Notes: generated by a model not told the origin, from the sequence alone. Positions 8,757-57,534 are shown, counted from the first letter of the stretch. The stretch is DNA of 64,000 nt from Candidatus Dormiibacterota bacterium (GCA_035936995.1 DASYVR010000002.1:5311-69310), one strand, 5' to 3'. Numbers and translations are program-made.

Positions 8757-8827
8757 CCTTTCCCTCCCCCTCTAGACGAGGGCACGACTCGTTTCCCTCC
8801 CCCTCTGGGGGAGGGCAGGGTGGGGGC
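8757..8827 (+). repeat. Two adjacent G/C-rich hairpin repeat copies (first degenerate) downstream of ackA
   Basis: tttccctccccctctagacgagggca... then tttccctccccctctgggggagggcagggtgggggcg. Confidence 0.9.
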
Positions 8828-8829
8828 GC

Positions 8830-12370: not shown

Positions 12371-12435
12371 TCCTTCCGCCCTTGCGGGGACTGAAGCTCC
12401 CTCCGCCCTTGCGGGGGAGGGTCGGGGTGGGGGGT
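12371..12435 (+). repeat. G/C-rich hairpin repeat, two tandem copies (one degenerate)
   Basis: ctccttccgcccttgcgggga... then ctccctccgcccttgcgggggagggtcggggtggggggt. Confidence 0.8.
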
Positions 12436-13796: not shown

Positions 13797-13848
13797 ATCC
13801 CCTCCCCACGATTTCCCTCCCCCTCACGAGGAGGGCAGGGTGGGGGCC
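13797..13848 (+). repeat. G/C-rich hairpin repeat copy
   Basis: cccctccccacgatttccctccccctcacgaggagggcagggtgggggcc. Confidence 0.85.
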
Positions 13849-13891
13849 TTCGTCACCCGTCCACGGCACCCGGAGCGTCGATAGGATTGGC

Positions 13892-18701: not shown

Positions 18702-20018
18702 GTGATGGCCTCACTCGAGCGATGGATTCGCCGCCGGAGGAAGGTGGTTACCCTTGTAGCCATGGAAACGCGCCCACGCGCGTGGGGCTGGATCGGGCGG
18801 CTGCAGCCGCGCACGTTCGATCGGCTGCTGGTTGGCGTTCTCCTTTTGCTCGGGCTGATCAACACACTCCTCGATCTGCGATTCGCGGATCGAGGGCTGC
18901 GTCTCCCCTCCGGTGCTCCAGCCGGCACCGCCATCCTTATCTTTGTCGGCCTTGCCCTATTGCTGCTGCAAGTCGTTCCGCTGCTCTGGCGACGCAGCCA
19001 TCCGAGCTTCGTCCTCCTGCTGGTCGCCGGCGCCTTCGGCGCCAGGGTCTTGTTGGGTTTCAATCCGGGGATCGCCGGGTTCGGGCTCCTGGTCGCGATG
19101 TACAGCGTCGCCGCCTACGAGGTGGGGGTTCGACGGGTGTTTTTTCTGGTCGTCGCCGGCCTGGGTTTCGTGGCGGGCTTTGTCGCCTTCGTCATCACTG
19201 GCAACCCCCGGTCGTTCGCCATCACTGTCCCAAGTGTGTTCTTCGTTGCCGCCTGGCTGATTGGTGATTACCTTCGGACCCGGCGCGCCTACGTCGCCCA
19301 GCTGGAGGAACGGGCAGCCCGGCTCGAGCGTGAGCGGGACCAGGACCGACAGCTCGCGGCCGACGAGGAGCGGTCACGGATTGCGCGCGAGCTGCACGAC
19401 GTGGTCGCCCACGATGTCAGCGTGATCGCGATCCAGGCCGGCGCGGCGCGAGCGGTGCAGGCCACCAGGCCCGAGGCAGCGGCGCAGGCCCTCGGCCTGA
19501 TCGAAACGACAGCGCGGGAGACCCTCATCGAGTTGAATCGGCTGCTCGGGGTGCTGCGCGGAAGCAATGGCGCCTCTCCCGATCGCAGCCCGCAGCCCGG
19601 GATCGGGCAACTGGCCGGTCTCGTCGAGGAACTGCGCGCCGCCGGGCTCGAGGTCGACGCGCGGGTTGACGGCGAACCGCGGTCACTTCCGCCGGCGCTC
19701 GACCTGTCCGCCTACCGGATCGTGCAGGAGGCGACGACCAACGTCCTCAAACACGCCGGCGCCCGACGCGTTGACATCCGGGTGCACTACACGGAGACGA
19801 TGCTCGCACTCGATGTCCGCGATGACGGCGCCGGCGACGGTAGCGACTCGGCCTCGTCGTCGGGACATGGGCTGATCGGGATGCGTGAGCGGGTCGCCGT
19901 CTTCGGCGGCGAGCTACGGGCGGGGCGCGATCCCGCCGGCGGATTCTCGGTGCACGCGCGTCTCCCCATCGACAGCACTCACTCCCCCCTTCGGGGGGAG
20001 GGTCGGGGTGGGGGGTGA
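18702..20018 (+). CDS. Sensor histidine kinase, HisKA_3 (DesK/LiaS) type, multi-TM N-terminus
   Basis: RIARELHDVVAHDVSVIAIQAGAA H-box, HATPase_c G-boxes; the last ~12 codons are derived from a G-rich repeat copy. Confidence 0.8.
   Translation: MMASLERWIRRRRKVVTLVAMETRPRAWGWIGRLQPRTFDRLLVGVLLLLGLINTLLDLRFADRGLRLPSGAPAGTAILIFVGLALLLLQVVPLLWRRSHPSFVLLLVAGAFGARVLLGFNPGIAGFGLLVAMYSVAAYEVGVRRVFFLVVAGLGFVAGFVAFVITGNPRSFAITVPSVFFVAAWLIGDYLRTRRAYVAQLEERAARLERERDQDRQLAADEERSRIARELHDVVAHDVSVIAIQAGAARAVQATRPEAAAQALGLIETTARETLIELNRLLGVLRGSNGASPDRSPQPGIGQLAGLVEELRAAGLEVDARVDGEPRSLPPALDLSAYRIVQEATTNVLKHAGARRVDIRVHYTETMLALDVRDDGAGDGSDSASSSGHGLIGMRERVAVFGGELRAGRDPAGGFSVHARLPIDSTHSPLRGEGRGGG
19982..20016 (+). 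repeat. G/C-rich hairpin repeat copy overlapping the 3' end of the kinase gene
   Basis: actccccccttcggggggagggtcggggtggggggtga. Confidence 0.85.
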
Positions 20019-27084: not shown

Positions 27085-27123
27085 TTCCCTCCCGCCTTGC
27101 AGGGGAGGGTCGCGGTGGGGGGT
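27085..27123 (+). repeat. G/C-rich hairpin repeat copy
   Basis: attccctcccgccttgcaggggagggtcgcggtggggggtg. Confidence 0.85.
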
Positions 27124-27156: not shown

Positions 27157-28209
27157 GTGACGCGCGCTGCTCGCCCACACGCGACTGGGCAATCCGGGAG
27201 CTGGCGCCCAGGCGACGCCCAACTCGGATGGATCATCGAGAATCGGGTCGATGAGGCCTACATCCTCTCCTGGCCCGGCCAGCTCGAGACCTATGTGCCG
27301 CTGCACGACACCGGCGGCTACGATCGGGCCCGGGCCCCGCTCGGGAGCTATGACTTCCGGCTGGATCAGATCAAGGGCACGGCGAGCATTCATCCCGGAA
27401 ACCTCGTCGAGATCTCGTTCAACACGCCGGCCCTGCACCCGCGTCGGCATCTGGATTTCACGGTCGTTCGCTTCGACCTGAAGATCCGCGATTTGGTCGA
27501 CCCGGCGTGGCTCTTTCCCAGTACCAGGCTCGCCGAAGTGTGCACTCAGGACGCTTCCGTTGGACGCCCCGACCACTGGGTGTTTGCCGCGAATCCCTCG
27601 GGCCTCGCCCGGGACCGTGCGGCGAAGTACCAGGTGGCGCTTCGGGAGCTGGCCGCGGCTCGAGGCTGGTCGATCCTGCCTCCGAGGCTTCCTCAGCTAT
27701 CGGCCAACCCCATCGAGACGGGAACCTTCTTCGAGCGGCATTTCGACGCCGCCTTCCTGCAGGCGACCTCGGGCGATGAGGTCTTGATGGCGACCACTCC
27801 GGACAACTTCAGCCGCCACCGGCTCGCTTTTTCGAAGATGAGCGGACACTGGGCGTCTATCGCCATCCACGGATCGGCGGTAAGCAACGGCACCCAATTG
27901 ATCCAGGCCAACATCCACGCCGCGACCTTCTTTCCGCACCCTCGTCATTACATCCTGGTCCAGCACTACGACCGTCTGCGTGCCGAGTGGTACCCATGGA
28001 GCTGGTTCATCAATTCCACCGACTTCGCGAAACTGGCCACGGGCAAGGGCGCCTACCTGCTCTTTACCACTACGCTGAATCCCCAGCGGGTAAATCGCTG
28101 GACGCCATACCGAATCCCCACCAGTGACGCGGCCAAGGCCTACCAGTCCGCGCTCCACGGGCGCACTTCCCTGCCCCGGAGGGGGAGGGTCAGGGAGGGG
28201 GCCGCCTAA
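27157..28209 (+). CDS. Hypothetical protein (start uncertain); C-terminal ~12 codons derived from a repeat copy
   Basis: 350 aa ORF with good GC3 bias, no recognisable motifs. Confidence 0.4.
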   Translation: MTRAARPHATGQSGSWRPGDAQLGWIIENRVDEAYILSWPGQLETYVPLHDTGGYDRARAPLGSYDFRLDQIKGTASIHPGNLVEISFNTPALHPRRHLDFTVVRFDLKIRDLVDPAWLFPSTRLAEVCTQDASVGRPDHWVFAANPSGLARDRAAKYQVALRELAAARGWSILPPRLPQLSANPIETGTFFERHFDAAFLQATSGDEVLMATTPDNFSRHRLAFSKMSGHWASIAIHGSAVSNGTQLIQANIHAATFFPHPRHYILVQHYDRLRAEWYPWSWFINSTDFAKLATGKGAYLLFTTTLNPQRVNRWTPYRIPTSDAAKAYQSALHGRTSLPRRGRVREGAA

Positions 28210-28885: not shown

Positions 28886-29152
28886 ATGACCGCGCACCCC
28901 TTCTCGTTGTAACGCCGCCCGGGCACGCAACGCCGACCACTCAGGCCCGGTGGGCTGCGGCGCCCCCGGCACCCCGCTTACTGCTGCTTCCTTCCGGACC
29001 TGACAGGGTTCACGGAACCAGGTCGCGCAGGACCAGGCCATCAACGCAGTCGCACGAAACACGACTCCAGACAGCGCACCCCTCAAAGGGGAATTCGACC
29101 CCGCTAAAGCGGATTGCGGGTACAGGGCACCGCTAGCTCCCCGTCTAGCGCG
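28886..29152 (-). ncRNA. ffs: Signal recognition particle RNA, long (Bacillus-type, Alu-domain-containing) form
   Basis: Minus strand has the domain IV core CCTGTCAGGTCCGGAAGGAAGCAGCAG. The 5' region GACGGGGAGCTAGCGGTGCCCTGTACCCGCAATCCGCTTTAGCGGGGTCGAATTCCCC closely matches the B. subtilis scRNA Alu domain. Ends approximate. Confidence 0.85.
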
Positions 29153-29161
29153 ATCGCGTCT

Positions 29162-37630: not shown

Positions 37631-39397
37631 ATGCCCGTCATCATGCCACGCTTCAGCCATCGGCTGGCCTTGAAGATCGTCCTGCCGTTCGCCGCCCTGA
37701 CGCTGGCGATCGGGGCCGTCGGCACCCTGACCGCTACCGGAGAACTGAGCGCCCGCAGCCAGGGAGCCTTCGACACCCAGCTGATCCACGATGGCTTCGT
37801 CGCCCAATCGATGGTCCAGGCCGGCGACGCCAGGCGACAGGCGATCCTCCGCCTGCTGGCCGGCGGGTCCGGGCTCAGCCAGAGCTGGGACCAAACCCCG
37901 GCGTTGCAGGCCTGGTTGGAGCGGGCGCTGACGATTCATCCCAACGTCATCGTCGAGGCGGTCGACACCTCGGGCCGGGAGATCGTCGGGGTCGTCGGCC
38001 ATGGTGCGCTTGCCGACACGGTGACGCAGAATCATGACCTGAGCGCCTGGCCGGGCCTCAGCTACATGCTGAGCGGCGGCGCATCGTCCCTCGACGTGGT
38101 CGCCTCCGCCCCCGGGCGCGCGGTATTCACCGGGCAGCCGGTGCACAGTGGCACCGGCAAATTGCTCGGCGCCATCCTGGTCGGCGATTATCTCGACGAT
38201 CGGGCGGCGGCGATCAAGACCTCGCTGCACGACGACATCACCTACTACGACGTCAACGGCCAGGTGCTGAGCACCTCGTTGGGCATCCCGCCCGCGCAAT
38301 GGTCCACGCTGGCGCTCGACTCGGGTACGCGTAATCGCGTGAGTCCGACCAGCGTCGTCGAGCTGTCTCGGATGGCGGGGGGCCCCGGGATGGAGCTCAT
38401 CTTCCCCTGGACCCTGCGCACGGCGAATCTCGGTTACGTCGGGACCACGGCCTCCAGCGCCGGCCTGCTGGCGGATACCAACCAGCTGCGCCTCATCCTG
38501 GTCACGCTGTTCCTCGCCGGCGTGCTGTTCACGCTCTTGATCGGCATCTGGTTGGCGCGCCGCATCACACGCCCGGTGCATCGCCTGGTCGAGGCGACCC
38601 GGCTGGTCAGCGCCGGCGACCTCGAGCACCAGGCGCCGGTGACGACGCGCGACGAGATCGGTGAGCTTACGGAGTCCTTCAACCAGATGACCCGCAGCCT
38701 GAAGGAGAAGAGCGCCTCATTGAAGGGCACCATGACGCAGCTGCAGGACACCTACCTGATGACGATCGAGGCACTGGCGGCCGCGGTCGAGGCGCGGGAT
38801 CCGTATACGCACGGCCACACTCGGCGCGTGGAGGAGTACGCCGTCATCATGGCGACGGCGCTCGGTTGCGACGAGGCGGAGGTCAGCGCCATCCGCAGGG
38901 CCAGCGTGCTTCACGACATCGGCAAGATCGGCATCGAAGACCTGATCCTTCGCAAGCAGGGCCGGCTCGAGCCCGAGGAGGAGCTCCGGATGCAGAAGCA
39001 CCCGGTGATCGGGGTCGACATGCTAAAGGGCATCGACTTTCTCGATCCGGTGCTGCCGCTGGTGCGCAATCATCACGAGCGCTGGGACGGCAACGGCTAC
39101 CCCGATCAATTGCGGGCCGACGAGATCCCGATGGGTGCTCGCATCCTCGCGGTCGCCGACGCGCTTGATGCCATGACCTCCGACCGGCCCTACCGCGCGG
39201 CACGCACCTTCGAATACGCAAAGGCCGAGATTCTGAAGGGCTCGGCGACCCACTTCGACCCCGAGGTCGTCACCGCGTTCATCATGAGCCAGCGGGCGGT
39301 CGAGGAGCTGCTCCGCGAGGCCGCCGAGGAAGAGCTGGAGCACCACCCGGAACCGGACGACCTCGGCGGCTGGCGCAGGCACGTCGTCGGCCGCTAA
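37631..39397 (+). CDS. Membrane HAMP-HD-GYP phosphodiesterase with periplasmic sensor domain
   Basis: TM1, ~280 aa periplasmic region, TM2, HAMP, HD-GYP (HGHTRRVEEY...LHDIGKIG...HHERWDGNGYP); start trimmed to MPVIMP. Confidence 0.85.
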   Translation: MPVIMPRFSHRLALKIVLPFAALTLAIGAVGTLTATGELSARSQGAFDTQLIHDGFVAQSMVQAGDARRQAILRLLAGGSGLSQSWDQTPALQAWLERALTIHPNVIVEAVDTSGREIVGVVGHGALADTVTQNHDLSAWPGLSYMLSGGASSLDVVASAPGRAVFTGQPVHSGTGKLLGAILVGDYLDDRAAAIKTSLHDDITYYDVNGQVLSTSLGIPPAQWSTLALDSGTRNRVSPTSVVELSRMAGGPGMELIFPWTLRTANLGYVGTTASSAGLLADTNQLRLILVTLFLAGVLFTLLIGIWLARRITRPVHRLVEATRLVSAGDLEHQAPVTTRDEIGELTESFNQMTRSLKEKSASLKGTMTQLQDTYLMTIEALAAAVEARDPYTHGHTRRVEEYAVIMATALGCDEAEVSAIRRASVLHDIGKIGIEDLILRKQGRLEPEEELRMQKHPVIGVDMLKGIDFLDPVLPLVRNHHERWDGNGYPDQLRADEIPMGARILAVADALDAMTSDRPYRAARTFEYAKAEILKGSATHFDPEVVTAFIMSQRAVEELLREAAEEELEHHPEPDDLGGWRRHVVGR

Positions 39398-39417
39398 ACG
39401 AGCCTCAAGTCTTCAAG

Positions 39418-39453
39418 TTCCCTCCCGCTGTGGGGGAGGGCAGGGTGGGGGCT
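39418..39453 (+). repeat. G/C-rich hairpin repeat copy
   Basis: gttccctcccgctgtgggggagggcagggtgggggc. Confidence 0.9.
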
Positions 39454-40005
39454 CTATTTCACCAGGCCTGGCAGCAGCGAGGGCAAGATCGGAACCGGCA
39501 GAATGCTGGTCAGCGGCAGCGGTAGCAGGCTGGGGGCCGCCGGCGGCATGGCCACTGGGGGCAGTATCGGCGGGCTGGGGGTCGGCGTTGGCGTCGGCAA
39601 CGGTAACGGCGGCGGCCTCGGCAATGGTAACGGCGTCGGCGTCGGCAACGGTAACCGCTTCGGCGTCGGCAACGATAGCGGCGTTGGCGTCGGCAGTGGA
39701 ACCGCCGTTGGCGTCGGCAGCACCGGATCAGCCGCGACAGGGTTCGGCATTCCCGAAAGCAACGATGCACCGGGTCCGCCACCGGCATCCTGCTGGGCGT
39801 CCTGGAACACCCGGAGCGAAAGTGGCGCGGGTCGCTGGGCCGAGTCGCCCGCGTAGCTCGCCAGGCTGAGCCCGTGGACGTTGACCCCGATCGCGAGTAG
39901 GCCGGGGAGATTCGACACGAGGAGCGCCGTCAGCCAGAACAGCAATGCGAACGCCGGGAGCGAGGCGAGGATGGCGAGGTAACGCAGCGGACGGATGCGG
40001 TTCAT
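39454..40005 (-). CDS. Pro/Thr-rich membrane-anchored protein
   Basis: N-terminal TM helices followed by PTPTPLPLP repeats encoded by a tandem DNA repeat. Confidence 0.5.
   Translation of the reverse strand: MNRIRPLRYLAILASLPAFALLFWLTALLVSNLPGLLAIGVNVHGLSLASYAGDSAQRPAPLSLRVFQDAQQDAGGGPGASLLSGMPNPVAADPVLPTPTAVPLPTPTPLSLPTPKRLPLPTPTPLPLPRPPPLPLPTPTPTPSPPILPPVAMPPAAPSLLPLPLTSILPVPILPSLLPGLVK
39585..39725. repeat. Imperfect tandem repeat (18-24 nt units, ggcgtcggcaacggtaacggc...)
   Basis: Direct reading of the sequence; encodes the P/T/L-rich segment of the 39454 gene. Confidence 0.65.
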
Positions 40006-41702
40006 GCCGCCTCAGGCTGCGCGCTCGTCGCGCCAACCTTGCCCATCCGTCGCACCAGCGCCTCGACCGCCCCTTGCCGCGCCAGGAACGCGGTCACGAC
40101 GTCAGGATCGAACTGCAGGCCGGCCTCGATCCGGATGGCCGCGGTCGCTGCCTCGTAGCTCAGCCCCTCGCGATAGGGCCGGTCCGAGGTCATAGCATCG
40201 AAGACGTCGGCCACCGCCAGGATCCGTACCGGCAGCGGGATCGCGGTCCCGGCCAACCCGGTCGGATAGCCGGCGCCGTCCCAGCGCTCGTGGTGATAAA
40301 GTACGCCGGGCAAGCTGGGTTGCAAGAAGCGAAGGCCCTTGAGCATGTCGTAGCCGATCCGCGGATGCTCGCGCATCTCGCCCGCCTCGGCCGCGGTCAG
40401 TGGACTCGGTTTGCGCAGCACCTTGTCCTCGACGCCGATCTTCCCGATGTCGTGCAGCAGCGCCGCCCGGCGCAGCGCCTCGCGATCCTTTGCCGTCAGC
40501 TGCATCGCGTCGGCGATTTCGACGCTGATCGCCGCCACCCGGGCCGAGTGGCCGAACGTGGATGCGTCGCGGGCGTCGATCGCCCGAGCAAGCGCCTCCA
40601 TGCTGGCGAACGTCGTCTCCTCCAGGGCGCCGGTCTTCTCCTCGAGGCTGGCGGTCACGTCGTTGAAGGTCCGGGCGAGGTAGCCGATTTCGTCCCGTGA
40701 GACGACTGCGGCCCGATGCCGCAGGTCGCCCGCGGAAACGGCCCGCATCGACCGCACCAGCAGGTCGATCGGCCGGGTCAGCCGCGAGGCGGTGACCGTT
40801 CCCACCAGCAGCGTGAGTAAGGCGGCGGCGGTGAAGACCAGGGTGAGGACCAGCCGGAGCTGTGCCACCAGGCTCAACAATGGGTCGGCGTTGGCCTGGA
40901 CGGCGAGGTAGCCAAGCTGGCTCCCGCGCATGATCCAGGTGCTAAACAGGGCGCCGTAGGCGTGGTCGCCGCGAGTGTCGTCCATCCGAACCGCCTTAAG
41001 CGTCGTGACCTGCCGCCGGATCGCGTCGGTCGCCAGCGGCGCACTCGGGAGGCCGCTGGCGAGCGGCGTGCCCGAAATGTCGTAAAGGGCAGATCCCGGG
41101 ACGGCCGCGGCGATCTCGGCGAGGGACTCGCCGACCAGGACCGCTCCGACGATTCGTCCCCCTGCGACGTGGACCGGTCCAGCCCAATAGAGAGCGGGCT
41201 GGGCTCCCGTGGGAGAGAGGAAAATTCGTCGCTCGCCCTGCGCGTCCGTTTCACCCGCAAGGACCTTGACCACGGCTGGCTCGGCGGTGAACGCGCCGGC
41301 GTCGGTGACGCTGGCCGAGCCCAGCCCGTCGCGTGTGCTCTCGACGCGAAGCACGTCCTCGCCACGAATATCGAGAACGACCAGCTGGATGCTGGAGACG
41401 GTCGGCTTGAGATTGGCGGCGATCGGCGTCAGCAGCCGGGTCAGGCCGCCGATGTCGCCGGAGGCGAGCGCCTCCGGCACGCCCACCGTGTCGGTCGCCT
41501 GCCGCAGGTCGGCCATCCGGGCGGCTTCGAGTTGCGCCATCGACTGGTTGGCGACCAGGCTGCTCCTGAGCAGGTTGGCGTCGAACACCGCGTCCGCGGC
41601 GTCGGTCAGCCGCGCCGTCGCCACGCCGGTGCCGATCACGCCCACGAAGATGAGCAGCACGGCAAACGGCAGAATGATCTTGTAACGGATGGAAAGCCGC
41701 AT
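40002..41702 (-). CDS. Membrane HAMP-HD-GYP phosphodiesterase, paralog of 37631..39397
   Basis: Same architecture and motifs (HSARVAAISVEI...LHDIGKIG...HHERWDGAGYP); start trimmed to MRLSIRYK (ATG at 41702). Confidence 0.85.
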   Translation of the reverse strand: MRLSIRYKIILPFAVLLIFVGVIGTGVATARLTDAADAVFDANLLRSSLVANQSMAQLEAARMADLRQATDTVGVPEALASGDIGGLTRLLTPIAANLKPTVSSIQLVVLDIRGEDVLRVESTRDGLGSASVTDAGAFTAEPAVVKVLAGETDAQGERRIFLSPTGAQPALYWAGPVHVAGGRIVGAVLVGESLAEIAAAVPGSALYDISGTPLASGLPSAPLATDAIRRQVTTLKAVRMDDTRGDHAYGALFSTWIMRGSQLGYLAVQANADPLLSLVAQLRLVLTLVFTAAALLTLLVGTVTASRLTRPIDLLVRSMRAVSAGDLRHRAAVVSRDEIGYLARTFNDVTASLEEKTGALEETTFASMEALARAIDARDASTFGHSARVAAISVEIADAMQLTAKDREALRRAALLHDIGKIGVEDKVLRKPSPLTAAEAGEMREHPRIGYDMLKGLRFLQPSLPGVLYHHERWDGAGYPTGLAGTAIPLPVRILAVADVFDAMTSDRPYREGLSYEAATAAIRIEAGLQFDPDVVTAFLARQGAVEALVRRMGKVGATSAQPEAA

Positions 41703-41832: not shown

Positions 41833-41899
41833 ATCCCTCCCCCTTGGTGGGAAGGTCGACATTCTTCCCTCCCCCTCTGGGGGCGGGTCAGGGTGGGGG
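41833..41899 (+). repeat. Two adjacent G/C-rich hairpin repeat copies (first degenerate)
   Basis: atccctcccccttggtgggaagg ... ttccctccccctctgggggcgggtcagggtggggg. Confidence 0.85.
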
Positions 41900-42226
41900 T
41901 TAGTCGCCCTTGGCTCGGCGCGACTCCCAGAACGCCAGCCCGCGCCGAAGTCGCTGCATCTCTGCCTCGAGGAACGGGATGTCGTTCCCACCCAGCTCCC
42001 TGTTGGTTTCTGGAACCTTCTCGATGTGCTCGCGTGTCTCGCTCAGCAGACGCTCCTTGAACGCGACCATGTCTCGATAGACGGCGCGCCAGTGCGCGAT
42101 GTCATCGGCGTCGGCGGTGTCGCGATTTTCGCCTTCCATCAGCCGGTCGAAGTCGATAATTCGCTTGAGGAAGTCAGGCGGCTCCATGGCTGCCAATGAT
42201 AGGGACTTGTTTAAGCCCGATTCCAA
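41900..42226 (-). CDS. Hypothetical protein
   Basis: 108 aa, charged/helical; start may be MEPPDF at 42187. Confidence 0.35.
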   Translation of the reverse strand: MESGLNKSLSLAAMEPPDFLKRIIDFDRLMEGENRDTADADDIAHWRAVYRDMVAFKERLLSETREHIEKVPETNRELGGNDIPFLEAEMQRLRRGLAFWESRRAKGD

Positions 42227-43679: not shown

Positions 43680-44300
43680 TCAGCCGGTCAGCGCCGCGCC
43701 GACGGTGACCACGCCGAACCCCAGGAGCGCGACTCCCGAGACGATGCCGATGCCCCGGATAACGGCTGGCGTCAGCCGCTCGCGCAGTCGGCTCGCGACG
43801 CCGGTCAGAACAACCCACCAGCTCAGCGACCCGAGCAAGACGCCAATAACCAGCGCGAGCGCCGTTATCCAACCCGCCGCGACATGGGTGCCCAACCCGG
43901 CGAATACAGCGGTGAACGACAGGATCGTCGGCGGGTTACCGAGGGTCAACGCCACCATTGACCCGGAGGCGCCGGCCAGCCCGCTTTTGTTTCCCTCCCG
44001 CTTTGGGGGAGGATCAGGGTGGGGGACTTTGAGCGTTCGAAGCCCAATAAGGGCGATCGCGATGCCACCCACCAGGCCGATCCAACGGCGCTCCGCGATC
44101 AGAACGCCGGTGACCGCCGCAACGCCGAAGGCCGCCAGCGCCGCATAGGTGGCGTCGCCGGTGGCGACGCCGAGACCGGAGCTCAGACCGCTAGGCCAGC
44201 CGCGGGCGAGCGTGCGGCGGAGGACCAGGAAGAAGATCGGGCCCGGTGAGGCCGCGATCGGGAACCCGACGAGGAATCCGAGGACAACCGCCCTGGCCAT
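43680..44300 (-). CDS. LysE/RhtB family amino-acid exporter with an in-frame repeat insertion
   Basis: N-terminal FLVGFPIAASPGPIFF LysE signature; codons KVPHPDPPPKREGN are encoded by repeat copy 43990..44025. Confidence 0.7.
   Translation of the reverse strand: MARAVVLGFLVGFPIAASPGPIFFLVLRRTLARGWPSGLSSGLGVATGDATYAALAAFGVAAVTGVLIAERRWIGLVGGIAIALIGLRTLKVPHPDPPPKREGNKSGLAGASGSMVALTLGNPPTILSFTAVFAGLGTHVAAGWITALALVIGVLLGSLSWWVVLTGVASRLRERLTPAVIRGIGIVSGVALLGFGVVTVGAALTG
43990..44025 (+). repeat. G/C-rich hairpin repeat copy inside the LysE CDS
   Basis: tttccctcccgctttgggggaggatcagggtggggg. Confidence 0.85.
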
Positions 44301-44387
44301 CCGCCTTCACGGCACCAATGGTATGACACGAGCACAGGTCTGCCGGTCTCGGGAAGGCAAAGCCGGCAGAACCTGTAGAAAGTGAAG

Positions 44388-44650
44388 CGACCCATCGTTA
44401 CGGTTGATAACCCGCCAGTGTGACCCAACGAGCCCTTACCGCCGCCCAGTCCAACCGTTTCCAGAAGGACCTTCACTCCGTACTAATCGAGTCCTTGCGG
44501 GCCCGGGGTTCGGGAGCCCACCGATGTCGTTTCCGTCATCGGCTGGCTTTCTGACAGGTCGCGGGCGTAAGCGTAAAGGCCGTCCAGATCTCCCGCAACT
44601 CCAAACTGCGGTTCGCAAACGCGCGTGCGCTCGGGCGCTGGATCTCTGTT
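44388..44650. ncRNA. Candidate structured noncoding element, copy A (paralog of 50450..50930)
   Basis: No ORF. Shares ordered conserved boxes with copy B (gttacggtt, cccagtcca, ccttgcgg, ctggctttctgacaggtcgc, cccgcaac, cgctcg). Its hairpin ccgatg-tcgtttccgt-catcgg becomes tagag-tcgtttcctt-ctcta in copy B, a compensatory change. Confidence 0.35.
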
Positions 44651-44688
44651 TCCCTCCCCCCTTGCTGGGGAGGGTCAGCGTGGGGGGT
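44649..44688 (+). repeat. G/C-rich hairpin repeat copy overlapping the aminotransferase 3' end
   Basis: gtttccctccccccttgctggggagggtcagcgtggggggt. Confidence 0.85.
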
Positions 44689-45859
44689 AGTGCCGTTTGA
44701 CGAATGCCGCGATTCGGTTTGCAGCCTCCGCCAGCCTCTCCTCCGGCTCGTTGGTGAAGATGAATCGCACGTGATGGTCGCCGAAGTCGTCGGCGCCCCA
44801 GGCGTTCATCGGCGTGATGGCGACGTTCTCCTCCTCGAGGAGCTTGCGACAGAAGTCCCGCGCCGAGACCGCAAGCGCCCTGATGTTGGCAATGAAAAAA
44901 TAGCCGCCGTCCGGGGCGACAACCCGCAACCCGGGAATCCTCGCCAGGCCGGCAATGAGGACATCGCGTCGGCGCTGATACGCCGCCGCCGACTCGGTCA
45001 GGTATTGCTGCGGTCCGGCTAACGCAGCCGCGGCTCCGGCTTCCGAGTGGCCGCTCGCCATGATCCCATTGAAAATGTGGACGTCGTGGACGGGCCGCAT
45101 CAATTCGCGGGGACCGACCGCCCACCCGATCCGCCAGCCAATCATGTTGTAGTTCTTCGTTACGCCGCCGACGATGATGGTTCGCTCCTTCATCGCGGGC
45201 AGCGTGGCCGGGTTGACAACCTCCATCCCGTCGAAGACCACTTTGTCGACGGCGCCGTTAAAGATGAGCAGGGCGTCGCTCTCCCGGGCAGCGGTCGCAA
45301 TCAGCTCCGTCTCGTCTCGGCGGAACACGACCCCGGTCGGCATTGACGGAGAGCCGTAAAAGATTGCCGTGCAACCGCGCGCGGCCCGCCGGAGGTCCGC
45401 GGCGTTGAGATGCCAGCCATCGGCCTCCACCTGGTCGGTGAAGACTTGCACGCCGCCGGCGAGGCGGACGCGCTGCGCCATCCCGTTATAGGTCGGGTTG
45501 GTCATCAGGACTCTGTCGCCATCGTTGACGTAGCTCAAAAGGACGTCCAGCATGGCTTCCCCGACACCGGAGGTGACGACGATCTCGCCGTCGGGATCGT
45601 ATTGGAGTCCGAGGTCTGACCGGTACCGGTCAGCGATCGCCTGGCGCAGCTCAGGCAGGCCGTGCAGCGGGAGATAGCTGTTGTAGCGGTCCTCGCCAAT
45701 GGCATCCCTCGTCGCCTGGACGGCGTGGGCTGGCGGCGGGTAATTGGAGTCCGCGTTCTCCAGCCGGATGCACCCCGGCCGCTGATCCGCGAGCTCGGCC
45801 ATGTCGGCCATCGTCATTCGAACCATGGATCGCACCCGGGCAGACGTTGGCGGTGGCAT
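44675..45859 (-). CDS. PLP-dependent aminotransferase, class I/II
   Basis: Fold-type I aminotransferase length and motifs (GVTKNYNMIGWRIGW Lys region). Confidence 0.8.
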   Translation of the reverse strand: MPPPTSARVRSMVRMTMADMAELADQRPGCIRLENADSNYPPPAHAVQATRDAIGEDRYNSYLPLHGLPELRQAIADRYRSDLGLQYDPDGEIVVTSGVGEAMLDVLLSYVNDGDRVLMTNPTYNGMAQRVRLAGGVQVFTDQVEADGWHLNAADLRRAARGCTAIFYGSPSMPTGVVFRRDETELIATAARESDALLIFNGAVDKVVFDGMEVVNPATLPAMKERTIIVGGVTKNYNMIGWRIGWAVGPRELMRPVHDVHIFNGIMASGHSEAGAAAALAGPQQYLTESAAAYQRRRDVLIAGLARIPGLRVVAPDGGYFFIANIRALAVSARDFCRKLLEEENVAITPMNAWGADDFGDHHVRFIFTNEPEERLAEAANRIAAFVKRHYPPR

Positions 45860-45881
45860 CAGGCCTTCCCTCCTCTCGCTC

Positions 45882-46000
45882 TCAGTATTTGCTGGCTTCG
45901 AAGAAGCTGCCGCAGACGTGGCACTTGCATTGCATCGTCATCACCTGCGATCCGAACAACGAGATGACCTCGGTCTCCGTCGATCTGCAGAATGGGCATC
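45882..46000 (-). pseudogene. Orphan PaaD-type zinc-ribbon tail (CPFCRSTETEVISLFGS...CKCHVCGSFFEASKY) with no in-frame start
   Basis: Matches the C-terminal CxxC...CxxC..F..FK ribbon of PaaD/DUF59 proteins; upstream in-frame region is occupied by repeat copy 46029..46068; no ATG/GTG before the ribbon. Confidence 0.3.
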
Positions 46001-46028
46001 GCGTCGACGGTAGCGAGGGCTCGGTAAA

Positions 46029-46068
46029 TTTCCCTCCCCCTTTACCCAGATCCACCGAAGGGGGAGGC
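46029..46068 (+). repeat. G/C-rich hairpin repeat variant with a large loop and no G-tail
   Basis: tttccctccccctttacccagatccaccgaagggggagg. Confidence 0.6.
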
Positions 46069-46099
46069 CTTAGCCGGCTAAAGAGAATGCGAAAGGTGC

Positions 46100-47600
46100 C
46101 CCGCTGAACTGAGACAATGGCGGCGTTCAACCAAGCCAACGTCTTAGCAGAGGAGCACCTAACGGGTGACATCATCGCATACGTCCCAGCACCCTCGCAT
46201 CGTCTTTGATGACCGCCGAGTGATCGCCAACGCCGGCCTTCTCCTGCCCGCTCGACTGGCGCAGCGCCTGGGACTCCACGAGTTGCTGGACCGGCACATC
46301 GACCTCGGCCCGGCGGTGGGCCACGCCCGTGTCGGGGAGAAGGCGCTGACGCTGGTTGCGTCGCTTCTGGCGGGCGGTGATTGCATTGATGACGCGGCCG
46401 CGCTGCGCGCGCCGGGCCGTGAAGCCGTGCTCGGTCATCGAGTGGCAGCGCCCTCCACCCTGGGTACGTTTCTGCGCTCGTTCAGCTGGGGTCACCTCAA
46501 GCAGTTCGACCACGTGAGTGAACTGGCGCTCGCCCGCGCGTGGCAAGCGGGAGCGGGCCCCGGTCGGCAGGGCCTCACGGTCGATTTCGACTCGACCATC
46601 TGTGAGACCTATGGGGTCAAGAAACAGGGGGCGCAATTCACCTACGCGAAGGTGTGGGGCTATCAACCGTTCCTGGCCATTACCGCGGAGAGCGGCGAGG
46701 TGGTGCACAGTCGGCTGCGCGGAGGGCGCGCGGCCCCGGCGCGAGGCGCGGGACATTTCGTCGGAGAAGCGCTGGCGCGCGTGCGCCGCGCCGCTTCGCG
46801 GGCGCACTGGTGATTCGTGCTGACTCCGGCTTCTTCACGGAGGACGTGGTGCGGGCCAGCCTGCGGTACGACGCCGGCTTTTCCGTTACCGCCCGCATGT
46901 ATCCGCGGTTGAACCGGTGCATCGCCGAGATTCATCCTGAGGCCTGGCAGCCGATCAGGAATTGGGTGGGCGGCACGGCGGAGGTCGCGGAAATCGCCTA
47001 CACCGCCTTTGCCAACACGCATCACGGCAAGCGCGCGCGCCCGCTGGTGGTGCGCTTGATCGTCCGCCGCGTGCTGCCGGATTTCGCGCAGCTCAGCCTG
47101 CCGGGTCTCGGCTATCGCTATCACGCATTCATCACCAACCGCCCGGGCACGGCCTTGGCGCTCGAAGTCGACCATCGTCAGCACGCGATTGTCGAAAACC
47201 GCATCCGAGACCTCAAGCACGGACTTGGGCTCAACCATCTGCCCTCGGGCCGGTTTGCGGCCAACGCGGTCTGGCTGGCACTCAACGTGCTGGCCCACAA
47301 TTTGCTGCGCTGGCTCGATCGACTGGCACTGGCCACCTCGGGTTGGACCGCCAAGACCTTCCGCTATCGCTTTTTCGCCGTCCCTGGCCGGCTGGTCCGA
47401 TCCGGCCGCCAACTCTGGTTGCGCCTTCCGGCTCAATGGCCCTGGCGATCGCAATTCGAAGGCGTGCTCGAGCGCTTGGGCCACTCGCCACCTCAGCCAG
47501 CCTGACGGCGCTTCGCGCTCCACGTCCCTGATCGCGGTCCGAGCATCCCCTCGACGGGCGGTCATCCCGTTCAAGACGACTCGGCAACCCACTTGCTGCC
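46100..47600 (+). mobile_element. IS1380-family insertion sequence (ends approximate)
   Basis: Transposase with N-terminal FDDRRVIANAGLLLP, ADSGFF, and ENRIRDLKHGLGLNHLPSGRFAANAVWLALNVLAHNLL DDE-region motifs; terminal inverted repeats not resolved by eye. Confidence 0.65.
46166..47505 (+). pseudogene. IS1380-family transposase, split by a -1/+1 frameshift near 46790
   Basis: ORFs 46166..46813 and 46654..47505 are consecutive parts of one transposase in different frames; the join is ...ARVRRAAS | GALVIRADSGFF. Confidence 0.65.
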
Positions 47601-47668
47601 CGCCTGGCCCCCTGAAGGCTGACTCCTATCGAGCCACGCCGCTCAAGCGGTCGACTCATACCCACTCA

Positions 47669-47738
47669 GCCCTCCCTCCGCCCCCTTCTTGCCGCGCCAT
47701 CGGTGGATTTGGGCTTTAGGGGAGGGCAGGGAGGGGAT
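47669..47738 (+). repeat. G/C-rich hairpin repeat variant with a ~40 nt loop
   Basis: agccctccctccgccccc...ggggagggcagggaggggatc. Confidence 0.6.
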
Positions 47739-47739
47739 C

Positions 47740-48507
47740 TTATTCACTGACCGGCATATACCGCTTTTCGGCGAGCCCCTGCAGCATGTCGAGCGTCCGC
47801 TGGTCGATGCCGCCCTGCGCGGTTCGCCGGCGCACCGGATCCCACTGCTTCCAGTCGATCGCCGTGCTCGGCCGGCTGCCCCCCACTCGCTCCTCGAGCT
47901 GGCGGTGGAGATCAGCGACGCCGAGTGCCAGTTTCCCTTCGCCGTGAAGTACATCCACATCGTTACCTCGAGGGCCAATCCAAGCGATGGCGTCCAGCCA
48001 TGCCCGCTCAGCTGCCACCGCAGAATTCACTTCGTGCATCCAGCTCCGACCATGCAGATAGTGGTAGCGCTCCTCCTGCAACATCTTCTTGAGCCGGCTG
48101 CGCAGGACCTCGACGTTGCCGTTCACGAGCGACTCAATCATCAGCGAGAAGGCGCTGTCGAGCACCGCGTTGGCGGCGACGAACTGGGTCCAGTCGCTCC
48201 ACGGCTGGTCCAGGTAGGGCACGTTGGCAAGCACGGTCTCATCGCTACCTGCCTCGGGCGCCCCAAGCTCCCGCAGCGATCCGTAGAGCACGCGGCTGTG
48301 CCCGATGTCGTCGAGCCCCATCGCAGCGGCGGCGATGTCGGCCTCCAGGCTCGGCGCGGCGGTGCACCATTCCGCGTACCGCATCCCCAGCAGCTGCTTG
48401 TTGTCGGCGAGGCTCTTAACGAGCGAGTAGAGACTCAGCCCTCGGCCTCTCCCGGGCCCCAGAGGCGGATGACGGCGTCCCGAGGCACGATCATCATCTC
48501 GACCCAC
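47740..48507 (-). CDS. PaaC-like ferritin-fold oxygenase subunit
   Basis: LLGMRYAEWCTAAPSLEADIA aligns with the PaaC N-terminal region; the true start is unclear (no ATG/GTG/TTG near the expected position ~48440), and the ORF's 5' end overlaps paaB out of frame. Confidence 0.6.
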   Translation of the reverse strand: MGRDDDRASGRRHPPLGPGRGRGLSLYSLVKSLADNKQLLGMRYAEWCTAAPSLEADIAAAAMGLDDIGHSRVLYGSLRELGAPEAGSDETVLANVPYLDQPWSDWTQFVAANAVLDSAFSLMIESLVNGNVEVLRSRLKKMLQEERYHYLHGRSWMHEVNSAVAAERAWLDAIAWIGPRGNDVDVLHGEGKLALGVADLHRQLEERVGGSRPSTAIDWKQWDPVRRRTAQGGIDQRTLDMLQGLAEKRYMPVSE

Positions 48508-48659
48508 CGTTCCTCGTCGTAGGTGGCTCGGGCATACGCCATCGCCAGGTCGTCGTCGGGCGCCACCACACTGCCGACCTGCCGCAGCGGTTCGACCCTG
48601 GCCTTGCGCGCGAAGACCTCGTACTCCCGAACCTGCGCGTGAACGCGGCTGTAGGACAT
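48435..48659 (-). CDS. PaaB-like oxygenase small subunit
   Basis: YEVFARKARVEPLRQVGSVVAPDDDLAMAYARATYDEE resembles PaaB; ATG overlaps the upstream stop as TGATG. Confidence 0.65.
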   Translation of the reverse strand: MSYSRVHAQVREYEVFARKARVEPLRQVGSVVAPDDDLAMAYARATYDEERWVEMMIVPRDAVIRLWGPGEAEG

Positions 48660-48982
48660 CAGACCGCGAGTCCCCAGGCCCGCAGGGTGTCCCGGCCCTC
48701 GGGCGTCAGGCGCGCCGACGACCAGGGCGGATCCCACACGATCTCGAACCGGACGTCGCTCACACCCGCTTCCGCGAGCAGCCGCTCGCGGATGTCCGAG
48801 ACGATCATCTCGGTGGCGGGGCAGCCCATCGCCGTAAACGTCAGTCGCAGGCGCACCGTCCCCTCCCCCACTTCGACGCCGTAGATGAGGCCGAGGTCCA
48901 CCAGGTTGACCGGCATCTCCGGATCATCGATCTCGGCCAGCGCCGACCAGACGCGCGCCTCCAGGGACGCGGGCGGCGTCAT
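48659..48982 (-). CDS. DUF59 (PaaD/MIP18-like) protein lacking the C-terminal zinc ribbon
   Basis: PVNLVDLGLIYGVEV...RLRLTFTAMGCPA...VRFEIVWDPPWS DUF59 pattern; ATGA overlap with paaA. Confidence 0.7.
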   Translation of the reverse strand: MTPPASLEARVWSALAEIDDPEMPVNLVDLGLIYGVEVGEGTVRLRLTFTAMGCPATEMIVSDIRERLLAEAGVSDVRFEIVWDPPWSSARLTPEGRDTLRAWGLAV

Positions 48983-49905
48983 ATTCGGACCTTGAACTGG
49001 TTGAAGCTCTCCTGGAAGAGCGCGACCATCTCGGCATTGCGCGGACCTCGAGCCCGCCAGCGCAACATCACGGCATCCCAGGAACACGGATCGTTGTAAT
49101 CCCAGCGCTTCTGCTCCGGGTCGAAGGTGCAGGGGAACGGATAGTCGAGCAGGTAGTGGCTGTTCTCCTGATGCGCCGGCACCCGAATGCCGATCGATTC
49201 CATGAAGGGGACGACGGTGGAGAGCCACTGCTGCCGGAGCTGGTCGTTGGTCAAACCCTTAAGCCGGTACTCGAGCTGGGTGCTGTGCTGCTTGAGCTCG
49301 TCCGGTAAGCCAAACCATTCAACCGTCAGTGGAAACATCCAGTCGACCGCCCGCTGCAGCTCCTCTTTGGCGGCGCCACTCGCCTGGCTGATCCGCTTCG
49401 ACCAGTTACGGCCGTTGCGCAGATGGAAGTTCTCCTCGGCCATGACTTTGACGAGACCGCGCTTCCAGGGTCCGTAAGAGCATTGCTCGTGGATGTCGCC
49501 AAGCAGGCAGAAGCCGGCCTGGTCATACATGGCGTTCGCCACCACCAGCTCGGTCCAGCTTTCGAGCGGCACGTCGAACGCGTAGGGATATCGAAACGCC
49601 TTGGGATCGCGCCGGAAGATCAGCGCCTCCTGGCTTTCGCCCAGCTCCTCGAGAATGTGGTACGCGATATGGGCGTGGGCCAGCTCGTCCTGGATGATCG
49701 CGATGCCCGTCATGAAGGCGTTGACGCTGGGCGCCTTGCGGGCCGCCAGGTAGTACGCGGGAGCCGAGATCAGCTCCGTATCGCCGGAGACGATCAGGGT
49801 GTGCTTGAGCTCACGCAGGTAATCCGGCGTCATCTCCGAGACGGACTCGATCAGCTCGCCGCGTTTGAGTAGACCGTCGAAGGCCGCTGAGTTCTCTGGC
49901 TCCAT
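48979..49905 (-). CDS. PaaA-like di-iron oxygenase catalytic subunit
   Basis: Ferritin-like di-iron ligand pattern (DELAHAHIAYHILEELG; EENFHLRNG); start trimmed to MEPENSAAF (ATG 49905). Confidence 0.7.
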   Translation of the reverse strand: MEPENSAAFDGLLKRGELIESVSEMTPDYLRELKHTLIVSGDTELISAPAYYLAARKAPSVNAFMTGIAIIQDELAHAHIAYHILEELGESQEALIFRRDPKAFRYPYAFDVPLESWTELVVANAMYDQAGFCLLGDIHEQCSYGPWKRGLVKVMAEENFHLRNGRNWSKRISQASGAAKEELQRAVDWMFPLTVEWFGLPDELKQHSTQLEYRLKGLTNDQLRQQWLSTVVPFMESIGIRVPAHQENSHYLLDYPFPCTFDPEQKRWDYNDPCSWDAVMLRWRARGPRNAEMVALFQESFNQFKVRI

Positions 49906-50425
49906 CCGCGTTGATTCTAAGATGACGTCCTTGACGGGCACCCGGCGCTGGCTGGTCATTGGCATCGGCGCAGGCGCGTGCCTGGTGATCGGCATGCTGG
50001 CCGCGGGGTCGCTTCGCCAGCTCGGCCAGGCGGTCACGACCCCACCGGAACCCTGCTCGCCACACCCCTGCGCCGCCCCCCACGCGTTCGAGGTCGTGAT
50101 CTCCGACATCACCGCCACGAACGGCATCGTCATGCTCCATGTGACCTTCCACAACAGAAGCAAAGCCGACCCCTTCGAGGCTGTGTCGTACGACCACACG
50201 AGCCCGGCGGATTTCCAACTGCGCTCGGCAGCCGGCCAGCAGCGGCCGCCGGCCTTCTCTGGTCAATGCCCCGACTGGGGCGAGCTGCGCATCGAACACA
50301 GCGCCAGCGCCGGTCCCAAGCCGCTCTGCTTCGCGGCAGCGCACGACGGCCTCAAGGGCGCGCTACTGGTCTGGTCACCTGACCTCGGCTTGCTCTTCGA
50401 CGACGTCCGGATCCCGCTGAACTAG
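49865..50425 (+). CDS. Hypothetical membrane-anchored protein
   Basis: TM helix WLVIGIGAGACLVIGMLAAG followed by a Cys-containing soluble domain; start probably MTSL at ~49922. Confidence 0.4.
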   Translation: MSRPSKAAEFSGSIRVDSKMTSLTGTRRWLVIGIGAGACLVIGMLAAGSLRQLGQAVTTPPEPCSPHPCAAPHAFEVVISDITATNGIVMLHVTFHNRSKADPFEAVSYDHTSPADFQLRSAAGQQRPPAFSGQCPDWGELRIEHSASAGPKPLCFAAAHDGLKGALLVWSPDLGLLFDDVRIPLN

Positions 50426-50449
50426 CGCCGAGCATCCGATGCATGGGGC

Positions 50450-50930
50450 TGGAAATAAGAATACGACCCGCCGTTACGGTTTACAACTCACCGGTGTTAC
50501 CCAGCGAGCCTTCATCCCGCTGCCCAGTCCAGCCCTTGCGGGTCAGACCTTCGTCACCGACAGAACCGGTCGCCTTGCGGCAACCGACTCCCCAGCCCTT
50601 TCGGGCCGGGCCCCCAGGCCTCACGGTCTGAGAGTGGGGGCCTTGCGGCTCCCTCGCCGGTAACCCGCTAGAGTCGTTTCCTTCTCTAACTGGCTTTCTG
50701 ACAGGTCGCAAGGGGTACGATAGCCCTCGGCCGGCCAACCCGCAACCCGGAACGTTTGTTTCCGAACACCCGCTCGTTTTCCTTCATCCCGTCGCGACGC
50801 TTGGGGTGTCAAGTCGTAACGGGACCTGTAACGAGCCGTGTCTCGATTTGAAGCTGAGGACCATTACCGTTTGCGTTATCTGCAGTAGGGAGTAGGCCTT
50901 TCGGCCGGCTAACCCCGAGGTAACAAACGG
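50450..50930. ncRNA. Candidate structured noncoding element, copy B (longer paralog of 44388..44650)
   Basis: 480 nt with no plausible ORF; conserved boxes and the compensated hairpin shared with copy A; contains a ~70 nt insertion that duplicates the ccttgcgg box. Confidence 0.35.
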
Positions 50931-51521
50931 ATGACACCCACCGTGGCAGATCAACGCGCCCATCGCGGGCCACATCGGCCGGATCGCCGCTGGGCCAGGC
51001 GTGGTCAGGGGATTACCGAATTCGCCCTCTGCGCCCCACTCGCGCTGATGATGCTGCTCGGCATCGTCGAGGGCGGCTTTTTGATGTTCGGTGTCGGCAC
51101 CGCTGCCTATGCCACCGGCGAGGGCGCGCGCGTCGGCTCCGAGGCGGGTAACTCGGCGAACGCGGATTCGCAGGTGATCGATGTGATCGTCGGCACGGGT
51201 CTCGGACAGAACGGCATCGTCCAGGTGACCGAGGTCGACATCTACCGCCTGATCGAGGATCCCAACACCGGAAACCTGACTGTCGATACCAGCGGCTGTG
51301 GCGGCCAGGGCTGCATCAACAAGTACGACCTATTCGGCACCCCGCTGGTGACCCCCGAACCATGGGTCGCCACCACGCGTGATGTGACCAACGGATCGAG
51401 CGACTTCATCGGCGTGACCATCAAATATCAGTACCGGTGGAAGTCCGGGACGCTGATCGCGACCGGCCCGCTGAACCTGTCGGCGAAGTACTACGTGCGG
51501 CTGGAGCCGCAGACCTACTGA
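50931..51521 (+). CDS. TadE-like pilus assembly/pseudopilin protein
   Basis: N-terminal GQGITEFALCAPLALMMLLGIVEGG Tad/Flp-type hydrophobic segment. Confidence 0.6.
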   Translation: MTPTVADQRAHRGPHRPDRRWARRGQGITEFALCAPLALMMLLGIVEGGFLMFGVGTAAYATGEGARVGSEAGNSANADSQVIDVIVGTGLGQNGIVQVTEVDIYRLIEDPNTGNLTVDTSGCGGQGCINKYDLFGTPLVTPEPWVATTRDVTNGSSDFIGVTIKYQYRWKSGTLIATGPLNLSAKYYVRLEPQTY

Positions 51522-57102: not shown

Positions 57103-57534
57103 ATGGACGTTGGCGAGACCGTCAGCGTCCGGTCCGCAGATGCATGGCGACGCTGGCTGGCCAGGCATCATCAAGACAAGAAAGAAATCTGGCTGATTTA
57201 TTACAAGAAGACATCGCGCAAGTCGGGCATCAGCTACGAAGACTCTGTCCAGGAGGCCCTGGCCTACGGCTGGATCGACGGCCAGACGAAGTCGATCGAC
57301 GACGCGACCTACGCGGGCCGGTTCACGCCACGCAAGCCAAACAGCAACTGGTCGGCCTCGAACATCGCGCGCATCAAGAAGCTCCTCGCCGAGGGCCGCA
57401 TGGCTGAGCCCGGCCTGGCCCTGCTCCCGCAAAGCCTGCGGCCTACCGGGAAGAATTCCCTCCCCCTGCGAGGGAGGGCCAGGACTGGCGATCCCCTCCC
57501 CGTCCGGGGGAGGGCCAGGGAGGGAGCTTCATGA
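57103..57534 (+). CDS. YdeI/OmpD-associated family protein; C-terminal tail read through repeat copies
   Basis: WRRWLARHH...IWLIYYKK...AYGWIDGQ pattern; the last ~25 codons are encoded by the repeat pair 57466..57527. Confidence 0.55.
   Translation: MDVGETVSVRSADAWRRWLARHHQDKKEIWLIYYKKTSRKSGISYEDSVQEALAYGWIDGQTKSIDDATYAGRFTPRKPNSNWSASNIARIKKLLAEGRMAEPGLALLPQSLRPTGKNSLPLRGRARTGDPLPVRGRAREGAS
57466..57527 (+). repeat. Two adjacent G/C-rich hairpin repeat copies
   Basis: ttccctccccctgcgagggagggccagg and cccctccccgtccgggggagggccagggaggg. Confidence 0.8.

Follow-up and report, generated by a model that had tools for sequence, protein, structure and literature searches.

Among described RNAs, raiA, OLE, ROOL and GOLLD are the closest in kind to the elements reported here, being RNAs of several hundred nucleotides (nt) that are restricted to particular lineages, have no coding potential and combine covarying helices with multi-helix junctions, GNRA loops and conserved junction nucleotides. 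Two RNA elements, hereafter A and B, share these traits in a 64,000-nt stretch of the genome of a Candidatus Dormiibacterota bacterium (GCA_035936995.1, DASYVR010000002.1:5311-69310; the window) and, in the reading that we favor, would likewise stand alone as genes. Unlike raiA, OLE, ROOL and GOLLD, however, A and B match none of the corresponding Rfam models, are smaller (260-335 nt), form two fixed paralogues within one syntenic block rather than lying near tRNAs or prophages, and have so far been found only in Dormibacterota-type soil bacteria. The Dormibacterota are abundant in soils worldwide and uncultured, and almost nothing is known, to our knowledge, of their RNA biology. A and B represent a previously uncatalogued RNA family, new as a family, which is encoded on the minus strand of the window.

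A preliminary description of this DNA had proposed that two paralogous regions devoid of open reading frames (ORFs) harbor an undescribed RNA under selection for structure, and this core claim is supported by the present analysis. Both by direct reading and in alignment, the boxes gttacggtt, cccagtcca, ccttgcgg, gtcgtttcc, an identical 20-mer, cccgcaac and cgctcg were present in the two copies in equal order and orientation. Exactly two sites, at plus-strand positions 44543 and 50690, carry the 20-mer, CTGGCTTTCTGACAGGTCGC; no further site with up to three mismatches exists in the 64 kb (none being expected from 100 shuffles), and the 20-mer was the sole repeat family linking the two regions in a repeat analysis of the window. 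The hairpin singled out earlier is indeed compensated: a conserved loop, tcgtttccNt, is enclosed by ccgatg/catcgg in A and by ctagag/ctctaa in B. Pairwise alignment of A and B showed 68% column identity, with indels of 2, 26 and 43 nt which, not being multiples of three, leave the copies without a shared reading frame; in agreement with the earlier statement that neither contains a credible ORF, a protein-coding and small-ORF test found no reading frame kept between them. A 33-codon ORF from the conserved GAUGAAGG upstream of B was also rejected, since indels of 1, 2 and 4 nt among B copies, located at the sole candidate ATG, break its frame. The extents first assigned to the copies (44388-44650 and 50450-50930) did capture conserved elements but not their boundaries, which are revised in Table 1: A reaches further left, to 44333, and the segment 50786-50930, formerly attributed to copy B, has no counterpart in A and is a separate block kept only beside tadE.

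Scanning one genome per species for the exact 20-mer returned 55 genome loci, nearly all of them in metagenome-assembled genomes (MAGs) whose labels read Candidatus Dormibacterota or, for soil bins, 'Chloroflexi CF_'; one match in a gut Clostridia genome was discarded as due to chance. Nucleotide identity between the window and the Dormibacterota MAG loci was ~80%. A looser pattern applied to metagenomes retrieved at least 120 soil contigs, and at least 139 further profile matches were found in the soil contigs, with types A and B only among the matches listed. In all, Dormibacterota-type MAGs and soil metagenomes provided at least about 200 copies. The homologous copies split into two orthologous types corresponding to the A and B of the window. 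Only these two types were recovered in nhmmer profile searches, with no third copy in the window; the same searches identified B-type copies with a one-base change in the 20-mer in L025, L039 and L042, which form the most divergent lineage, and the A/B duplication must therefore be older than the split of that lineage. Among 30 loci that have both copies, at least 23 place B ahead of A on a common strand, with a spacing of 2.7-7.1 kb, and the pair brackets paaA/C/D-like genes; opposite orientation of the copies was seen in two loci. The paralogy of A and B is ancient and their synteny conserved, which sets them apart from recent copies. Three type B copies lie away from tadE (L003, L051 and L053). 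Upstream of B in L003 and L051 is a pyrimidine-nucleoside phosphorylase-like gene instead of tadE, and in one MAG the non-tadE copy is found in addition to the usual B. Some genomes may thus have three copies.

Covariation is strong. Of the 90 pairs that make up the 13 helices of the structure curated on alignment A4 (57 sequences), 33 are altered on both sides (335 cells), and 96.6% of the cells are paired. A covariation score of 0.242 was obtained, compared to 0.150 in shuffles; none of 500 shuffles matched any of five structure measures, and a control in which the 3′ partners were shifted by 1-3 columns reduced pairing to 30-43%. Covariation was also apparent within each type, with 16 covarying pairs among the 78 sequences of type A (94.9% canonical) and 28 among the 68 of type B (97.5% canonical). 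Helix 3 (P1) was 99.8% paired, and one divergent B copy displayed a compensatory change in this helix, CUGUU/AACAG. Selection on RNA structure, which the preliminary description had deduced from the single compensated hairpin, was thus borne out, but that hairpin (P3) is a single member of a set of 13 helices with support.

The RNA is encoded on the minus strand of the window. RNAalifold found a consensus fold for 33 type-A copies that was far better on the minus strand (-75.0 kcal/mol, 64 pairs) than on the plus strand (-39.4 kcal/mol, 45 pairs). Of the pair cells of alignment A4, 96.6% were canonical on the minus strand and only 78.8% when read on the plus strand, and the minus-strand reading yielded 752 G·U cells as opposed to 51 A·C cells. 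Hairpin loops, finally, read GCAA, GAAA and GUGA on the minus strand, which are GNRA tetraloops, and UUGC and UUUC on the plus strand. Together, the G·U/A·C asymmetry, the GNRA loops and the fold energies assign the RNA to the minus strand, and not to the plus strand on which the elements were initially aligned and described. It follows from this assignment that B runs away from tadE toward the PaaA-like gene and that tadE is divergent; B does adjoin tadE, as was noted early on, but is transcribed away from it and is not a Tad leader. Compensatory helices and strand asymmetry, the generic marks of a structured RNA, are both present in this family.

In the consensus fold (Table 1), a 10-base pair (bp), G+C-rich P1 (GCGACCUGUC/GACGGGUCGC across the family) closes a compact domain in which a three-way junction (P1, P2 and P6) bears a four-way junction (P2, P3, P4 and P5), P2 being GCC/GGC. 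The junction strands AGAAA (J1/2), GAAGG (J4/5), CUGGGCGGCGG and CCGUAACGAC are essentially invariant while helix sequences drift and covary; J6/1 reads AACGAC. GNRA tetraloops cap the hairpins throughout the fold. The P3 loop, AAGGAAACGA, closes on GAAA, and P5 is capped by GAAA, but by GCAA in type B. The two types differ in P4, which carries a loop-E-like internal loop in type A and is a ~110-nt domain with four more GNRA hairpins in type B. The internal loop of type A (CGAA / UAGUAC) is nearly invariant and resembles loop E in its sequence. An all-against-all column screen for pseudoknot or tertiary contacts was dominated by phylogenetic correlation. The 3′ hairpin of A (44333-44377), whose GCCUUCCCGAG loop is anti-Shine-Dalgarno-like, is missing in the L002/L013/L046 sublineage. 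Conservation of B stops exactly past the U-rich tract.

Table 1. Location of the parts of RNAs A and B, of the block adjoining B, and of examples of the repetitive extragenic palindrome (REP)-like repeats in the window.
Feature	Position	Strand	Basis
Type A RNA, whole unit, ~300 nt (order: 5′ extension, P1-closed core, A/U-rich linker, 3′ hairpin)	44333..44632	-	conservation limits, 78 type-A copies; alignments A3 and A4
A 5′ extension, ~70 nt: hairpins CGAAC/GUUUG and UUGCGG, one variable-sequence hairpin	44563..44632	-	helices 1, 2; weaker support
A core closed by P1 GCGACCUGUC / GAUGGGUCGC, enclosing P2 (GCC/GGC) and P3-P6	44387..44562	-	RNAalifold, pair counts
A invariant 20-mer GCGACCUGUCAGAAAGCCAG (RNA sense): P1 5′ strand, J1/2 (AGAAA), P2 5′ strand	44543..44562	-	
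A P3 hairpin CCGAUG-ACGGAAACGA-CAUCGG, loop closing on GAAA tetraloop	44521..44542	-	helix 5: 5/7 pairs altered on both sides
A P4 GGCUCC/GGAGU, internal loop CGAA / UAGUAC, GCAA-capped hairpin	44475..44518	-	helices 6, 8
A P5 hairpin GGUCC..CUGG-AAA-CGG..GGAC, GAAA loop	44449..44471	-	helix 11: 6/9 pairs altered on both sides
A P6 GCGG/CCGU, conserved asymmetric internal loop, hairpin loop GUCACA	44400..44442	-	helices 12, 13
A A/U-rich linker UUCACUUUCUAC, then 3′ hairpin of 13-15 bp, loop with conserved GCCUUCCCGAG	44333..44386	-	conservation, alifold
Type B RNA, whole unit, ~335 nt	50452..50785	-	68 type-B copies; L003, L051, L053
B core closed by P1 GCGACCUGUC / GGCGGGUCGU; junction architecture as in A	50463..50709	-	
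B invariant 20-mer	50690..50709	-	exact match
B P3 hairpin UUAGAG-AAGGAAACGA-CUCUAG	50668..50689	-	
B-specific P4 expansion: four extra hairpins capped GCAA, GUGA, GAAA, GCAA	50553..50664	-	helices 7, 9, 10
B U-rich tract right after P1 3′ strand: AUUCUUAUUUCC in window, AUUCUUUUUU consensus	50451..50462	-	
Conserved non-coding block separating the tadE start codon from RNA B	50786..50930	.	conservation
REP-like copies	8545-8578, 8793-8830, 12397-12435, 13813-13850, 19978-20016, 27085-27123		
REP-like copies	28167-28204, 39418-39455, 41865-41902, 43991-44028, 44650-44688, 57455-57529		

The whole window was compared with the 4227 models of Rfam 15 at gathering threshold, and only the signal recognition particle (SRP) RNA passed. 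At E<=10, searches of positions 44000-51200 and, with lax filters, of each element alone returned chance matches only (12-22 bits), far below thresholds; the earlier conclusion that A and B match no known class thus holds even for the isolated elements. The sole Rfam match in the window is a large bacterial SRP RNA at 28890-29153 on the minus strand (172 bits, E 3e-28). ARAGORN identified no tRNA and no transfer-messenger RNA in the 64 kb, the latter having been ruled out by motif beforehand, and the Rfam searches of the elements gave no resemblance to self-cleaving ribozymes. Full-text literature searches with lineage and RNA terms and with sequence strings retrieved nothing relevant, and nothing similar to A or B was found in plasmid and phage collections; four viral contig matches were chance 17-mers in low-GC DNA. 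Look-alikes of cobalamin, lysine, SAM-I, NiCo and glmS RNAs, RNase P, SRP domain IV and group I introns were rejected, as they lacked an Rfam match and their strings occur in a different order. Resemblances to strings of the cobalamin B12 box, lysine and SAM-I RNAs, to RNase P P4, to 16S rRNA helix 27 and to SRP domain IV are likewise short, differently ordered and without support from the models. In the case of 16S helix 27, GAGUACGGCCGCAAGG presumably has the same building blocks as the AGUA/GAA strands of type A P4 and the CCGCAAGG hairpin, but the strands come in reverse order and in an unrelated setting, pointing to a recurrent motif, not homology.

In RNA sense, the syntenic block consists of tadE (upstream, divergent, ~145 nt away), B, PaaA/PaaC/PaaD-like genes (PF05138, PF23451), A and a variable gene, and inserted extra genes lie between B and A. 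In the window, an aminotransferase gene is inserted between the PaaD-like gene (ending ...EASKY*) and A, giving the minus-strand order aminotransferase, A, LysE and confirming the neighbors initially reported for A. The genes 3′ of A encode BNR-repeat secreted proteins in 13 loci, LysE in five, larger BNR-like proteins in two, and others, while a convergent HtrA-like protease gene ends 2 nt past the A hairpin in five loci. B is followed by a real convergent gene in at least seven loci, encoding a DUF4388 protein, an alpha/beta hydrolase, or a protein whose Kelch-repeat match is weak and falls short of the Pfam cut-off. Considering B and A together, convergent genes come after ~20-30% of copies, and the families of downstream genes are mutually unrelated. 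A sigma-70-like motif, CCCTTGTTTTCCRAAMCTTAATNRGCTAWSGTC (TTGTTT-N17-TAWSGT), was observed 10-150 nt 3′ of the A hairpin, before BNR genes and at variable distance (e.g. in L017, L027, L040, L048, L054 and L055). The block between B and tadE is missing in L003, L051 and L053, where tadE is not the neighbor; it shows 86% canonical pairs on either strand, without strand asymmetry or structural support. Being tied to the tadE neighbor and devoid of strand asymmetry, it was rejected as a part of the RNA. Motifs CCTACTGCAGATAACGCAAACGGTAAKGG and CACGGCTCNTTACAGGTCCCGTTACGAC (minus-strand sense) were noted in this block, which is probably a divergent promoter and leader region, or an operator.

On balance, we lean toward A and B being stable stand-alone structured RNA genes on the minus strand and not mRNA leaders. 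This preference comes from the convergent genes and the mutual unrelatedness of the downstream gene families, from the promoter-like motif that the gene downstream of A may call its own, from the end of B conservation at the U-rich tract, and from the 10-bp G+C-rich P1, which is unlike that of a switch. B would start in the region that it shares divergently with tadE and end at P1 and the U-rich tract. A, lying after the last gene of the co-directional paa-like string, would have its own start or derive from the 3′ untranslated region (UTR) of that gene. We infer these transcript ends from where conservation stops. In this reading, the junctions would form a tertiary core or a pocket binding a partner, whether a small ligand or a protein; the centering of conservation on the junctions suggests such a pocket or core rather than an antisense seed. 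It is conceivable, although we would not go so far as to call it probable, that the double-junction core is a new functional fold, either a ligand- or protein-sensing domain of stand-alone RNAs or a new class of ribozyme, maintained across a major uncultured soil lineage as two specialized paralogues, A in plain form and B with its expansion of four GNRA hairpins.

The only seed-like feature is the anti-Shine-Dalgarno-like loop of the A 3′ hairpin, which is lost in one sublineage; its CCUUCCC could pair with Shine-Dalgarno sequences. In the window, the loop sequence GCCUUCCC (44347-44362) is fully complementary to GGGAAGGC at 45863-45870 on the minus strand, 4 nt 5′ of the aminotransferase ATG, a match that probably reflects generic anti-Shine-Dalgarno complementarity. 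Paralogous small RNA pairs such as GlmY/GlmZ, 6S-1/6S-2 and CsrB/CsrC offer a parallel, in that they too consist of two diverged paralogues per genome with a common core and, apparently, independent genes, and the conserved GGA-containing loop AAGGAAACGA and the C/U-rich anti-Shine-Dalgarno-like loop of type A add to the likeness. A and B differ from them in having no sequence or structure similarity, no GGA hairpin array and no 6S-like central bubble, and in being conserved in junctions, not in single-stranded seeds.

Several observations weigh against the picture of a family of stand-alone RNAs. The retrieval patterns included the invariant block, so that the family may well be broader than recovered here and its 'invariance' is partly an effect of ascertainment, the breadth given being a lower bound; the full 20-mer stands in 133 of the 134 metagenome copies listed, though the pattern left its first six bases free. 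Many of the both-side changes divide type A from type B and represent few independent events. Single-sequence folding was no better than that of shuffles (z -1.4) and not significant on either strand, and structural support therefore comes from the comparison between sequences. Simple consensus scans called no sigma-70 promoter and no canonical terminator at A or B, and most copies have a co-oriented gene downstream. A complementarity search of the window brought up no partner, ligand or target: no site of at least 10 nt complementary to the invariant 20-mer was present except its own antisense, and the complement of the A loop matched only generic Shine-Dalgarno-like strings. Conservation of junctions is, moreover, typical of aptamers, which usually act in cis.

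This last point leads to the best-surviving alternative, that A and B are riboswitch-type cis-regulators in which a P1-closed aptamer controls the gene downstream, ligand-stabilized P1 and the U-rich tract together serving as an intrinsic terminator (an OFF switch); the targets would be the paaA-like or HEAT-repeat genes in the case of B and, for A, the genes of LysE exporters or of secreted proteins with BNR repeats. Lysine and cobalamin riboswitch aptamers do bear a likeness to A and B in their P1-closed domain of ~180-250 nt, stacked junctions, loop-E-like loop, conserved junction strands and U-rich tract, and the strings CUGUCA..AGAAA, GCGGUAAGG and GACCUG/AGCCAG recall them; the order of these strings is different, however, and no Rfam model lends support. 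Invariant junction nucleotides amid covarying helices, a U-rich tract directly 3′ of P1 in both types, and a co-oriented gene 7-200 nt past A in most loci and past B in about two thirds are all what a riboswitch would predict, and exporters of the LysE family could plausibly be under riboswitch control. However, a consistent 5′ UTR placement was not found, given the real convergent genes after part of the copies, and, unlike in those aptamers, no consistent downstream gene or expression platform was recognized. The promoter-like motif that intervenes, with variable spacing, before the BNR genes 3′ of A and a distance from B to the paaA-like gene that ranges from 0 to about 1000 nt further argue against control in cis, as do the length and G+C content of P1, which make ligand dependence unlikely. 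Finally, the two copies per genome are syntenic and not dispersed as in a regulon, and no alternative anti-terminator pairing was found. We thus regard riboswitches as an unlikely explanation.

Alternatively, A and B might be boundary elements of the paa-like operon, with B as 5′ UTR and A as 3′ UTR in its mRNA, and might function as processing sites (self-cleaving or RNase-directed) or exonuclease-resistant caps, such that mRNA stability would be set by the pair. The arrangement of B, co-directional genes and A on one strand in the large majority of two-copy loci fits this proposal, and so do the start of A ~0-40 nt past the last upstream stop codon in many loci and the insertion of extra genes between, not outside, the two RNAs. 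The convergent genes directly past B in several loci, the two loci with oppositely oriented copies and the three B copies in other contexts are in turn difficult to accommodate; there is no likeness to known self-cleaving ribozymes in Rfam, and invariant multi-helix junctions exceed the needs of a stability element. We consider this proposal improbable. A DNA-level or plus-strand element (the terminus of a mobile element, a REP or miniature inverted-repeat transposable element (MITE), an array of protein-binding sites or a plus-strand tadE leader) might be entertained in a window rich in REP-like hairpin repeats, one of which abuts A, and with B adjoining tadE in most genomes, but is very hard to reconcile with a copy number of exactly two in the window, without dispersed copies, their 68% identity and ancient paralogy in fixed synteny, the G·U versus A·C asymmetry and GNRA loops of a minus-strand RNA, the far poorer plus-strand fold and the failure of plasmid and phage searches to connect A or B with a mobile-element terminus, the viral contig matches being due to chance; mobile-element terminus, REP and MITE were accordingly rejected.

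The REP-like family just mentioned comprises at least 14 copies in the window, mostly intergenic, each made of CCCTCCCC-loop-GGGGAGGG, which forms a hairpin, and of (T)CAGGGTGGGGG after it. With four G-runs separated by short loops, these repeats could adopt a G-quadruplex, the C-rich arm competing for the first two runs. One copy separates the aminotransferase stop codon from RNA A. Another (43991-44028) lies in frame within the LysE-family ORF at 43680-44300 on the minus strand, where it encodes ...PHPDPPPKREGNKSG... between predicted membrane segments and looks like a tolerated insertion into coding sequence. In L002 and L046, the P1 3′ strand and U tract of A, GGTCGCTTCAATTTYC, are found two to three times, flanking REP-like hairpin insertions; the resemblance of these repeats to a target-site duplication suggests that the hairpin elements are mobile. 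Elsewhere in the window, a 24-nt tandem repeat of at least five units (39561-39719) lies between the arms of a long imperfect inverted repeat, 39069-39315 and 40051-40297, which are 74-88% complementary, and the region 39069-40297 may correspond to two diverged head-to-head gene copies or to a repeat-protein locus.

Conservation of the grade seen in A and B is usual for riboswitch aptamers, ribozymes and ribonucleoprotein scaffolds. An RNA of ~300 nt with 13 covariation-supported helices, fixed as two paralogues and without a counterpart in Rfam, is a candidate for a new class of RNA, in which what is new is the family itself, and its members are short enough for their synthesis to be feasible.
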